The position numbers and the translations under genes were made by a program. From positions 1,550 to 65,549 of the forward strand of contig JAJBWD010000222.1 in assembly GCA_032907345.1 (NCBI GenBank): a stretch of 64,000 nucleotides of DNA, read 5' to 3'. The stretch's first letter is position 1; the number at the start of each line of letters is the position of its first letter. This DNA comes from Bacillota bacterium. Its GTDB lineage: Bacteria; Bacillota; Clostridia; Clostridiales; Clostridiaceae. The notes under the pieces were generated by a model, which worked only from the letters and a program-made list of their open reading frames with translations, did no database searches and was not told where the DNA came from. Positions 29,755-32,271 of the stretch are shown here, one piece after another.

Positions 29755-30510
29755 ATGAATTATATTGTTATGTTAACAACAAAAGCTACTCCTAAGAAAT
29801 TAGGAAAAGCAAAAACTAAAACTTTTTTAGTTATTTAGCCATAGGATTATACAAATAAATAGATTTCGGATTTAAGAGCCGCGGGATATATCCTTTTAGG
29901 GTATTTATCTGCTGGCTCTATTTCTGATTAGAGGAGTTATTATAAACAATTAAAACCCTATCGGCTTAGTAAATTATAGGACTGGCCCCATGAATATTAT
30001 CTCGATTTAAGGAAACCCGCAGTTAGAGATTTTATTGTATATAGAGCAAAAGAACTAAAAAATCGCGGATTTCAAGGTTGGTGGCTAGATAACCTAGATG
30101 TATATGAATATCACAAAAGTACAGAAATGTATAATGGTATTATTACTCTCTTGAAAAGAATACGTGCAATAGATAAAAATAGTTATATAATGATAAATGG
30201 CGGAAGTTAGTTTTTAGATAAACTTATGGATAAAGATTCTTCTCATAAAACAATCACATATATAGATGGTGTTACACAAGAGGAGGTTTATAGTTTAATT
30301 AAAAGTTATAGCGGAAAAGGCAAATTCGGTTAGCAAAAAAAGGATATGCATTCGTGGTATAAAAGTCACATGAAACGAATCCTTCGCCATAAAATGCAAG
30401 CATTTTTATTAGAATATACAACTTCCGCAAGTCTTAAAGCACGTATTCAAAAATTCTGTAAAACTTATAAAATGACAGGATATTATATTTCAAGTGATGT
30501 TAATTTATAA
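29755..30510 (+). CDS. GH114-like (TM1410/endo-alpha-1,4-polygalactosaminidase family) glycosidase; TAG-recoded
   Basis: ATG 29755, TAA 30508-10, 252 codons, 7 in-frame TAG. ...RGFQGWWLDNLDVYEY... Confidence 0.65.
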
Positions 30511-30522
30511 GGAGGATAATAA

Positions 30523-32271
30523 ATGGGAAAATGTACGGTTTGGGATGTTTTAACAGCCTTTAATAAATATGACGGTAGTAAAACCGCACATTAGGATGTT
30601 GTAAACACATTAAAAAAACATAATCATAATGCTAAAATGTCTGCGGCCTGGTGTACAATGACAATTATGGCAGCTTTATAGGATGCAGGCGGAATAGATA
30701 CAATAGGAGGGTATTCTCAAATTTCTGGCGATGCTACTTCAAAAGCAAAGAAGCTAGGAATTTGGCATAATGGAACTTCAGGCGTCCGCCCTGGAGATAT
30801 TCTTGTCTATTGTGATAGTAATAAAAAACCTAATCATACTGAATTCTGTGTAGGATATAACAGAACTATTTCAGGAAATTATAATGGTGGCTGTAGTCGT
30901 AGAACATATAAAGGCAGGTCTGTTTTAGGATATATTAGACCAAAGTACAATAGTATGCCTATAATGAATAACCTTCAAATAACTATTTGTGCGGCTTAGG
31001 TAATTCTTGGAACTTATGGATCTGGTACTAATAGAACCGCTATGCTTGCCGCTTTTGGTACATAGAACGCAAAAGCAATACAGAATAAAGTAAATTAGAT
31101 TGTTTCAAATCAATCTAATACTATTCGTGCTCTTGCTATTGCTACAATTGCGGGATATATGGGTAAAAATGATTATAGAACAAAACGTTTGTCTTCATGG
31201 GCTAACAAAGTTCAAACTCATATTAATGAAATATATGCTCTAAAAGGTAAAACTATATAGGCGGCCGCCCAATGTGTAATAGCAAATAAATTTGATAAAG
31301 GTGAAATAAGAGTATTATTACTAAAGTTCTGTGGATATGATGCAACTAAAGTACAAAAGAAAGTTAATGAAATATTAACTCAAACACCTTCATTAAAAAA
31401 AAATAGAATAAGGATACATCAAATTTGGACGTCTGAATCTAATAGTGATTTATATGGTGACAGTTATCTTATTACTGAATATGCAGATGATAATAAAACA
31501 ATTAAAAATTGTGTTTTAATAGATACTGGTCCTGGCGGGGGAGATACAATTAAAAAATTAAAAAAGATTAATCCCCCAAAAATAAACGCTATATTTATTT
31601 CTCACGGACACGGAGATCATGCAAATTTAAGTATTTTAAAATCTATTTGTCAAACTTTTACAGTAGAGAATATTTTTATATCAGATTATAAAGAAATGGA
31701 ATCTGTAAAAGCAGCGAAAAAAGCGGTTTCTACTTTAAAAAGTATCGGAACAATAGCTAAAGATAAGAAAATTAATTATAAGTATATATCTAACGGTTTT
31801 ACTTGGTCCGCAGGTAATATTAAATTAGATTGGTCTTGGCAAGCAAAATGTTCTAAGTTAAAACAATCTGATGACCACCATTTTGTTAACATGATGTCTA
31901 TTGCATTAATGTTTAATTTAAATGGATGGAAATTCTTCACTGCGGGAGACCTCTCTTATTAGGCTATTGATGCTTTAGTAGCATAGAAAAAGAATCAATT
32001 AAAATGTGATGTATTTAAATTACAATGGCACTCTGATAGAAATGGTATTAAGATAATTCAAATTAATGCTTGTTCACCTAAAGTTGGATTATCTAACTAT
32101 CATCATAGTAAATCAAGCGGAGGCCGCAAACTAACTTATAAAGTCTTTACTGATAAAGGTGCTATTGTTATGATGGCATATGAAAATGGAGAATGTTATG
32201 TTGATTGTTATCCAGACAATATGATAATCAGCTGCTCAAAAAATAATTTAAATAAGACTTTTCATAAATAA
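30523..32271 (+). CDS. CHAP amidase - 3x CW_7 (Cpl-7-type) repeats - metallo-beta-lactamase-fold domain; lysin, TAG-recoded
   Basis: RBS GGAGG + ATG 30523; TAA 32269-71; 583 codons; 8 in-frame TAG. AAWCTMT...NHTEF; VILGTYGSGTNR..AIQNKVN; SHGHGDH. Confidence 0.7.

Follow-up and report, generated by a model that had tools for sequence, protein, structure and literature searches.

Gene-by-gene recoding of a stop codon, with early genes left in the standard code and with lysis and homing-endonuclease genes recoded most heavily, has been published for crAss-like, Lak, Agate and other phages (Borges et al.), and the only reassignments stated there for phages that differ from the code of their host are TAG to Gln and TGA to Trp. 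The 64,000-nucleotide stretch analysed here (positions 1,550 to 65,549 of contig JAJBWD010000222.1, GenBank assembly GCA_032907345.1, filed as a Bacillota bacterium; the window below) carries phage genes partitioned in this manner: TAG is a sense codon in a pair of lysis genes, a sigma-like regulator and a small number of other genes, and is absent from an array of small genes. The partition is another instance of the published pattern, and the amino acid differs, because TAG appears to encode Glu, read by a phage-encoded tRNA of the tRNA-Glu type. A full-text literature search found no report of an amber-to-Glu reassignment in phages, many subscription papers being outside its reach, so that an earlier report is possible.

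With the recoded gut phages (crAss-like, Lak, Jade, Sapphire, Agate, Garnet, Topaz and others; Ivanova 2014, Yutin 2021, Borges et al. 2021/2022) the window shares a suppressor tRNA encoded by the phage while the host presumably keeps to the standard code, early genes written in that code, the strongest bias in lysis and homing-endonuclease genes, scattered recoded modules, and recurrence of recoding among close relatives. It differs in the use of Glu rather than Gln or Trp, in the origin of the suppressor from tRNA-Glu, in a sigma-like regulator being among the most recoded genes, and in lysis genes that lie in an apparent operon with TAG-free genes. The human-gut Caudoviricetes phage phAss-1 ('Phassvirus'; Babkin et al. 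2023, PMC10607447), with a genome of ~136 kb, 36 tRNAs, CUA suppressor tRNAs and TAG in 28% of its open reading frames (ORFs), is similar, but there TerL alignments and tRNAscan led to the assignment of TAG to Gln, and it has no detectable nucleotide or lysin similarity to the window in the phage collection. Host-takeover modules of the SPO1 type and the sigma cascade of Herelleviridae (the closest cultured relatives in this comparison being Enterococcus phages of ~140 kb) likewise combine an array of small genes under strong host sigma-A promoters with an adjoining gene annotated as a sigma factor; here, in contrast, neither the putative sigma-like gene nor the block behind it can be translated without suppression. 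In genetic code 30 of peritrich ciliates, TAA and TAG stand for Glu, and UAG is read, as it would be here, by a suppressor derived from tRNA-Glu; that code is eukaryotic, nuclear and genome-wide and covers TAA as well, whereas the window reassigns TAG alone, in a subset of the genes of a virus whose host would still terminate at TAG.

The window is AT-rich (34.5% GC) and contains 32 tRNA genes, one of them with the anticodon CUA. Genes were called with TAA and TGA as the only stops and a simple codon-usage model, which gave 96 genes of at least 50 amino acids (aa) covering 70% of the window; 76 of them have no TAG, so that a standard-code subset is present. A plus-strand array of small genes is followed by the lysis pair, a tRNA region, and a structural and tail-fibre block on the minus strand. 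Its relatives come from metagenomes, of the human gut and elsewhere, as uncultured contigs of 130-146 kb, and the closest cultured relatives according to two marker genes are phages of Bacillus, Listeria and Enterococcus (134-166 kb); a nucleotide search of 29-33 kb against GenBank phages gave zero matches, and the lysin protein retrieved only distant CW_7 lysins from the same phages. The host is likely a member of the Bacillota, because of the CW_7 repeats, the tRNA-Glu type of the suppressor and the Enterococcus and Bacillus phage relatives, and the window would belong to a Bacillota-infecting phage, ~140-145 kb in length and akin to Enterococcus phages of the Herelleviridae type. The features on which the decoding of TAG turns are as follows.

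29755..30510, plus strand: GH114 glycoside hydrolase gene of 252 codons, with 7 in-frame TAG (50% of its Glu-type codons).
30523..32271, plus strand: lysin gene (N-terminal Cys domain, CW_7 repeats, metallo-beta-lactamase-fold domain) of 583 codons, with 8 TAG (42% of its Glu-type codons).
262..1374, minus strand: gene for a putative sigma-like transcription factor of the phage that ends in a zinc ribbon at its C-terminus, 10 TAG, the first gene of a TAG-rich block.
43944..44016, plus strand: suppressor tRNA with anticodon CUA, tRNA-Glu type (ARAGORN, 43943-44019; Rfam tRNA model, 53 bits).

An earlier note on this DNA, made from the sequence alone, had described the region from 29.75 to 32.27 kb as nearly devoid of ORFs in the standard code and as resolving into two genes when TAG is read through. 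Both statements hold: standard-code ORFs that overlap 29600-32400 are all of 88 aa or less inside the two lysis genes, and read-through restores both genes with the lengths and TAG counts that the note gave. The first matches Pfam PF03537 (Glyco_hydro_114; 6e-19, 68.6 bits against a curated cut-off of 27) and has the relatives Ega3, PelA and TM1410 in the PDB; the second matches CW_7 (3.6e-19, 68.7 bits) and Lactamase_B (2e-8, 34.9 bits), both above their cut-offs, as well as PHROG endolysin families. The CW_7 and metallo-beta-lactamase domains named in the note are thereby supported, but its CHAP domain is not: residues 1-156 of the lysin match no CHAP or NlpC/P60 profile, Pfam returning nothing at E <= 0.1 and a PDB sequence search nothing at all, and the N-terminus has a weak PHROG endolysin match (2e-4). 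Homologues have no real stops at the TAG positions. Among 99 lysin homologues some are fused to GH114, and in the standard-code relative L007 (10001-12559) GH114 and lysin form one unbroken fusion protein with zero TAG. Since standard-code ORFs are lacking where read-through yields a full-length GH114 protein and lysin, and since the L007 homologue is uninterrupted, TAG functions as a sense codon in both genes. The fusion proteins of standard-code relatives (L007; P0023-P0029, P0043, P0049) are of 850-880 aa and adjoin a GH25 lysin; because of this fusion the two window genes are probably one functional unit. The metallo-beta-lactamase domain (31.4-32.3 kb) has a further aspect: most of the homologues P0004-P0062 also have precomputed Pfam matches to PF23023 (Anti-Pycsar Apyc1, a cyclic-nucleotide phosphodiesterase), and judging from this similarity the lysin may carry a second, anti-defence activity.

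The earlier note read TAG as Gln, whereas four independent lines point to Glu, an assignment made here on statistical grounds. When codons are compared pairwise between close relatives, TAG alternates mostly with GAA and not with CAA or CAG, which is suggestive but confounded; therefore a column-likelihood test with controls, in the style of Codetta, was used. For the sigma-like gene, 80 orthologous loci were aligned, column frequencies were taken only from the 42 TAG-free loci, and 24 loci had at least three TAG. Over the 39 TAG columns of the clade of the window, Glu has log-odds of +53.0, ahead of Ala (-38.3) and Gln (-45.3), and the ten TAGs of the window alone give +16.2 for Glu and +0.1 for Gln; the controls GAA, GAG, CAA, CAG, AAA, AAG, GAT, AAT and TAT were all assigned correctly. 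TAGs of this clade occur in 8 of 10 conserved Glu columns and in none of 3 conserved Gln columns, while of the 11 Asp columns none contains TAG and of the 19 Lys columns one does; invariant Glu columns contain GAA, GAG and TAG, never CAA or CAG, and TAG alternates within the clade with GAA (185 times), GAG (29) and CAA (32). The lysin, aligned with 40 distant homologues, gives +9.7 for Glu, -12.1 for Asp and below -29 for Gln over 21 TAG columns; GH114, aligned with 123 representatives of <50% identity that were retrieved with a TAG-free stretch of 76 aa as the query, gives +8.4 for Glu and -12.1 for Gln over 11 TAG columns. The lead of Glu over Gln is thus 98 nats in the sigma-like family, >38 in the lysin and 20 in GH114. 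That the test tells codes apart is evident from the relatives L046, L052 and L055, in which TAG occupies the three invariant Gln columns and the score is +17.1 for Gln versus -10.2 for Glu. Alignments of GH114 with its PDB relatives leave the residue at TAG undecided when taken alone, the positions being variable, but a near-invariant Glu of the family (115 of 123) is encoded by GAA in the window and by TAG in the relatives L001 and L004.

Composition gives a similar answer. Standard-code orthologues of the sigma-like protein contain 30.5 +/- 4.3 Glu and 12.3 +/- 4.1 Gln, and the window gene has 20 GAA or GAG codons (GAR), 13 CAA or CAG codons (CAR) and 10 TAG; lysin homologues contain 20.4 +/- 2.9 Glu and 16.0 +/- 2.3 Gln, and the window gene has 11 GAR, 15 CAR and 8 TAG. 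With TAG as Glu both proteins reach the mean Glu content of their families (20+10 and 11+8), whereas with TAG as Gln they would have Gln contents 2.6-3 standard deviations too high and Glu contents 2.4-3.2 standard deviations too low. In the closest public lysin homologue, P0001, Q stands at all eight TAG positions of the window, TAGs of this clade having apparently been translated as Gln there.

The CUA tRNA, folded on the Rfam model, has a G1.U72 pair, a 7:66 mismatch, A73 rather than G73, a variable loop of 4 nt and a D loop enlarged by two bases. A scan of one genome per species (185,579 species) for the D-arm motif of this tRNA, GGTCAARCGGTT(N)AAGAC, found at least 120 loci, nearly all in Bacillota; among the matches listed, 111 of the 112 that overlap a tRNA are in tRNA-Glu (UUC or CUC), the full-length CUA tRNA is closest to tRNA-Glu(CUC) with 0.72-0.76 identity, and the best tRNA-Gln at the same loci reaches 0.57. 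Its anticodon is not the YUC of tRNA-Glu but is one base removed from CUC, which is why a tRNA so similar to tRNA-Glu reads UAG. By these similarities the CUA tRNA is best classed as a derivative of a Bacillota-type tRNA-Glu that has both anti-determinants against the amidotransferase GatCAB. Contigs from IMG/VR (4) and JGI (7), several of them ~140 kb long, encode related CUA tRNAs that share this D arm; these show compensatory changes in three stems, with G1.U72 conserved, as befits a gene that is maintained. In Bacillota the glutamyl-tRNA synthetase (GluRS) is usually of the non-discriminating form, which tolerates either C36 or G36 in the anticodon. The GluRS of the host, probably a Bacillota member, would charge the CUA tRNA with Glu. 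For acceptance by bacterial GatCAB, Glu-tRNA must have U1-A72, and the extra D-loop base U20B is what causes tRNA-Glu to be rejected (PMC2811023). The CUA tRNA has neither U1-A72 nor a short D loop, and because of the missing pair and the enlarged loop its Glu would be expected to escape conversion to Gln.

Three other readings of TAG have to be weighed against these results. That the TAGs are true stops, with the region made up of pseudogenes, produced by faulty assembly or expressed only piecemeal, could be argued from the lack of a long standard-code ORF, but this is already refuted by the full-length domain architecture that read-through gives and by the same TAG positions recurring in independent assemblies from several samples; the CUA tRNA in the window and the tight packing of the genes, with ribosome-binding sites (RBS) present and stop and start signals overlapping, leave it practically no probability. 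Ordinary code 15, in which the CUA tRNA would insert Gln and the additional TAGs would have been recruited at surface Glu sites that tolerate Gln, has in its favour that TAG to Gln is the sole amber reassignment reported for phages differing from their host, that U35 of the CUA anticodon attracts the glutaminyl-tRNA synthetase (GlnRS), that database proteins carry Q, and that some columns are mixed Glu/Gln, with alternation of TAG and CAA in a minority of columns. It would have to explain, however, why TAG occupies 8 of 10 conserved Glu columns in which none of the 80 orthologues has CAA or CAG and no conserved Gln column, why Glu leads in three families under a test whose controls come out correctly and in which genuine Gln-decoding relatives behave differently, why Gln would be so much in excess and Glu so deficient, and why the suppressor is of the tRNA-Glu type, with its best tRNA-Gln so remote; it is considered very unlikely. 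Slightly less improbable, though still quite unlikely, is mixed decoding, with a Glu charge that is partly amidated by GatCAB, or with charging by both GluRS and GlnRS, to give a mixture of Glu and Gln. The first pair, G1.U72, is weak, as it is in tRNA-Gln substrates, and is conserved among the variants; several TAG columns contain both Glu and Gln, and there is a resemblance of the D arm to the phage's own tRNA-Gln(UUG). Yet TAG is tolerated at near-invariant Glu, including the Glu of 'WPxE' in GH114, and is absent from invariant Gln columns in the clade of the window, and the extra D-loop bases are a known anti-determinant of GatCAB.

Decoding of TAG as Glu is confined to a part of the gene complement, and the partition follows the modules below.

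6975..23700, plus strand: early gene array of at least 37 small TAG-free genes, most with their own consensus sigma-A promoter.
1..260, minus strand: next gene after the sigma-like gene, running off the window, 4 TAG in its first 86 codons.
24147..26360, minus strand: module of 26082-26360 (10 TAG), 25732-26202 (SLOG/DprA-like, no TAG), 25239-25601 (7 TAG, 64% of Glu-type codons) and 24147-24857 (8 TAG).
33578-34270 and 34236-35045, plus strand: two genes with 3 and 2 TAG, respectively, the second of which has an orthologue with 16 TAG in the relative L005.
38566..39027, plus strand: HNH endonuclease gene within the tRNA region, 4 TAG (PHROG 14736, 8e-27; weak match to Pfam HNH).
49590..63977, minus strand: structural/tail-fibre block of 16 genes, eight with exactly one TAG, one with four (51967-52467) and seven with none.

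Between 7249 and 23421 all 37 genes of at least 50 aa are without in-frame TAG and end in TAA or TGA, as the earlier note had claimed for the ORFs that it called there; independently of the gene calls, all 41 plus-strand ORFs of at least 25 aa in the array that begin with an RBS and ATG reach TAA (37) or TGA (4) first, and array genes contain 68 TAG out of frame versus none in frame. TAG makes up 0 of 272 Glu codons in the array versus 65 of 646 elsewhere (Fisher p = 9e-11), and heterogeneity of TAG among genes is 312 versus an expected 92 +/- 15 (20,000 permutations), with the same outcome when Gln codons are used for comparison. The TAG counts in the earlier note (10 in 262-1374, 8 in 24147-24857, 7 in 25239-25601, 4 each in 38566-39027 and 51967-52467) are correct; the list of TAG-bearing genes to which they belong omits 26082-26360 on the minus strand, 33578-34270, 34236-35045 and the gene at the left edge (1-260). 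Its statement that structural genes need the suppressor applies to 9 of the 16 genes from 49.6 to 64 kb and not to the other 7, among which is the tail fibre gene 53363-54874, and its division into early and late genes is too simple, since several structural genes and six genes of the lysis operon are TAG-free. Its label 'RlaP' corresponds to a weak NTP_transf_2 match only. Genes fall into three classes of usage: without TAG, with one TAG (most structural genes), and, for a small set, with TAG at 26-64% of Glu positions. The heavily recoded set comprises the sigma-like regulator and the block behind it, GH114 and the lysin, the HNH endonuclease and a few other genes.

Three observations on individual genes stand beside this partition. 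The minus-strand gene 26082-26360, a Cys-rich ORF of 92 codons, overlaps the TAG-free SLOG/DprA-like gene 25732-26202 by 120 nt, and 8 of its 10 TAGs lie within the overlap; the downstream gene has its GTG start inside TAGTGTTAGTAG, and the tail of 26082-26360 becomes a long acidic stretch if TAG is Glu; TAG may instead be a leaky stop in this gene. In 1501-2364, 33578-34270, 34236-35045 and 50484-50939, TAGs are found in the last few codons, one being the final codon ahead of TAA; overall, 10 of the 65 TAGs fall within the final tenth of their ORF, versus 6.5 expected. Such C-terminal TAGs could be real stops early in infection and specify short acidic extensions once the suppressor is present. 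Two early paralogues, 16250-16654 (MANVMTYATAIEIAIKALGDTNPEA...) and 20423-20824 (MANQMTYVEAINHGIKALGETNPEA...), have 50-52% GC versus 34.5% for the genome.

The partition is tied to promoter class, a correlation that the earlier note had proposed to check. Of 35 matches to TTGAC[AT]-N16-18-TATAAT in the window, 34 lie between 6975 and 23700, and not one is located at a TAG-bearing gene; 24 of the 34 are on the plus strand, mostly 29-52 nt ahead of the start codon of a TAG-free gene, and many also have the TG of an extended -10. This concentration of near-perfect host sigma-A promoters supports the prediction that the array is an early module that would be expressed by the host RNA polymerase and unmodified host translation. 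A k-mer search upstream of the other genes found no clear second promoter class, only AT-rich elements resembling an extended -10 (TATAATAT). The remaining ten array promoters (minus strand, at 6975, 8404, 11490, 12651, 13848, 14643, 16884, 17610, 19930 and 23505) are perfect TTGACA-N17/18-TATAAT, mostly with the extended -10 TG; they oppose the direction of the early genes, with no minus-strand gene of at least 50 aa behind them, and could drive antisense RNAs or very small ORFs. Hairpins between early genes (8810-8836, 10227-10254, 8027-8048, 9527-9544) resemble terminators, and the other strand of the stem holds the -35 TTGACA of the next promoter, for example in GGCTTTTGTCAAGCC; terminator and promoter appear to be fused as one repeated cassette. 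Four further features bear on the transcription of the lysis pair and of the suppressor.

26579..26607, plus strand: sigma-A-like promoter TTGCAA-17-TATAAT, which heads the gene string from 26.6 to 32.3 kb.
26646..29749, plus strand: six TAG-free genes that lead straight up to GH114, spaced by 6-75 nt; among their products are Metallophos, isochorismatase and SprT-like proteins and a signal-anchored one with choline-binding repeats.
32277..32297, plus strand: intrinsic terminator (9-bp stem with 5 GC pairs, then a T run) that closes the lysis string.
40868..40896, plus strand: sole perfect sigma-A consensus promoter outside the array, 3 kb upstream of the suppressor tRNA and on the same strand; it precedes a TAG-free gene of the tRNA region.

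Some of the function labels of the six upstream genes are Pfam labels of their L001 orthologues. The last of the six is separated by 6 nt from GH114, which is separated by 12 nt from the lysin, and no convincing promoter or terminator was found between the TAG-free and the TAG-rich genes of the string from 26.6 to 32.3 kb. The lysis pair and the six genes thus form an apparent operon, and on one transcript only the 15 TAGs set the lysis genes apart from their neighbours. Because the lysis pair ends an operon whose first six genes are TAG-free, a gate on lysis would operate at the level of translation and not of transcription.

In the relatives L001 and L004 (76-77% identity in the lysin) and L005 (54%), TAG is again dense in these genes and again missing from their neighbours. 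The lysins of the three lineages have 8, 8-9 and 9 TAGs, of which one position is common to all; TAG positions of GH114 are conserved in L001 and L004, and 4 of 7 are conserved in L005; the six genes upstream of GH114 remain TAG-free in all three relatives, and the pattern of the minus-strand module is kept in the L001 and L004 orthologues. These genomes have thus kept the density of TAG in each gene and not its sites. Because gene classes are conserved while TAG positions turn over, the partition is a selected one.

Recoding in the family is centred on the sigma-like gene. This gene matches PHROG 5767 'sigma factor' (5e-48) and is 39% identical to Enterococcus-phage genes annotated as sigma factors; it has no Pfam match, profiles of sigma-70 regions 2 and 4 included, and its AlphaFold model (pLDDT 67) retrieved nothing below E = 1 from the PDB with Foldseek. 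Sigma-like genes of recoded relatives have 7-13 TAG, and in every recoded relative the gene opens a block with 6-21 TAG per gene, the divergent genes having zero; the left edge of the window shows the same boundary. The boundary is common to relatives of the Glu type, the Gln type and a third type, L070 and L071, in which six TAG columns of the sigma-like gene have no clear residue. The L218 and L253 contigs (8068-8158 in both; sigma-like loci L071 and L070) encode a CUA tRNA of 91 nt with a long variable arm, type II as in Leu, Ser and Tyr tRNAs, and this lineage may represent a third amber meaning in the family. Other relatives have CUA tRNAs that look Gln-like (UGGGG...G73), and standard-code relatives have the same array of 22 tRNAs and no CUA tRNA. 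When sigma-like genes are arranged in a distance tree, recoded types form separate clusters among standard-code relatives; recoding therefore has several origins in the family, with different meanings. A comparison of suppressor type with decoded residue through genes around DUF2828 (66 loci) was uninformative, the three widely shared families all being TAG-free. In the sigma-like gene of L078 (IMGVR_UViG_3300028805_000058), three TAGs fall in invariant Trp, Trp and Tyr columns; these could reflect a pseudogene, sequencing errors (TGG to TAG) or another reading of TAG.

The best explanation overall, and one that is considered probable, is that UAG is read as Glu by a phage derivative of tRNA-Glu, is used gene by gene, and acts as a translational gate on lysis. 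TAG-free genes, including the host-takeover array and many others, would be translatable by an unmodified host. The yield of full-length product would fall as (read-through efficiency)^n; genes with 7-10 TAGs would accordingly be expected to stay off until the suppressor outcompetes release factor 1 (RF1) and then to rise late and steeply, while structural genes with a single TAG would be only mildly damped. As the suppressor lies behind sigma-A-like promoters, the delay would come from its accumulation and from competition with RF1 rather than from late transcription of the tRNA.

Several points weigh against this explanation. The CUA tRNA is downstream of sigma-A-like promoters, that at 40868 included, with no convincing terminator between, so that the suppressor may be made from the start of infection, and seven structural genes are free of TAG. 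Codon 53 of the lysin, a TAG, corresponds to Tyr in 57 of 62 homologues; codon 59 of GH114, also TAG, corresponds to aromatic residues; and some TAG columns are mixed Glu/Gln, such as columns 86 and 352 of the sigma-like gene. Partial conversion to Gln would be compatible with the data, the assignment to Glu being drawn from alignments, composition and tRNA similarity. The label 'sigma factor' comes from PHROG and GenBank names, and the gene calls come from a home-made caller that covers 70% of the window. A rival explanation would attribute the partition to history and constraint and give it no regulatory role: TAG-dense genes would be mobile, fast-evolving cassettes such as lysins and HNH genes that have resided in recoded genomes for a long time, and TAG-free genes would be recent imports in the standard code, or simply short. 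The TAG-dense genes are indeed AT-rich (25-33% GC), exchange of lysin and HNH genes is common, the GC content of some early genes is atypical (up to 52%), several late genes are TAG-free, and early expression of the suppressor would fit. Such a history does not readily account, however, for the gene 26951-27841, which is AT-rich and Glu-rich (26 GAR) yet lacks TAG in the same string as TAG-dense genes; for a structural gene of 1511 aa with 53 GAR and a single TAG; for the absence of TAG from the Glu codons of the array, although GAG (64 codons) is one mutation away; for the conservation of gene class down to 54% identity while TAG positions turn over; or for the identical code boundary at the sigma-like gene, which arose in lineages with different decoding. 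It is therefore thought unlikely, and a gate on translation, with TAG as Glu, is preferred.

Extended to the family, the evidence allows a more tentative proposal, somewhat doubtful as a whole: that in phages whose hosts form Gln-tRNA indirectly, UAG is set as Glu or Gln, by way of GatCAB, through two small features of the tRNA, its first acceptor pair and its D-loop size; that the family has two amber codes or more, possibly including a third with the long-variable-arm CUA tRNA; that the same genes, the sigma-like block and the lysis enzymes, are loaded in each case; and that the number of UAG codons serves as a multiplicative timer. In the window, ARAGORN also predicts three tRNA-like genes, at 36053-36124, 46126-46209 and 46464-46539, whose anticodon loops are irregular, two being four-base ('tctg', 'gcat') and one two-base ('cc').

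The preference for lysis genes and homing endonucleases agrees with the published idea of recoding to which the earlier note had referred (Borges et al. preprint). If TAG is Glu in these genes, it would be an amber reassignment that has not been described in phages, and a recoded stop would not be bound to Gln or Trp, a restriction that the field attributes to promiscuity of GlnRS and of the tryptophanyl-tRNA synthetase. Gene callers and databases that apply code 15 would be placing Gln at Glu sites of phages, as at all eight lysin TAGs in P0001, and the wrong residues would affect annotation, structure prediction and lysin expression; in L001 and L004 one such TAG is at a near-invariant Glu of GH114. 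For Gram-positive hosts, the CUA tRNA may be of use as an amber suppressor that naturally inserts Glu. Sister lineages that decode TAG as Glu, decode it as Gln or are unrecoded, within one family and with a common code boundary in the recoded ones, would form a natural comparison, and the common boundary would be unusually direct comparative evidence that recoding has been selected for gene regulation.

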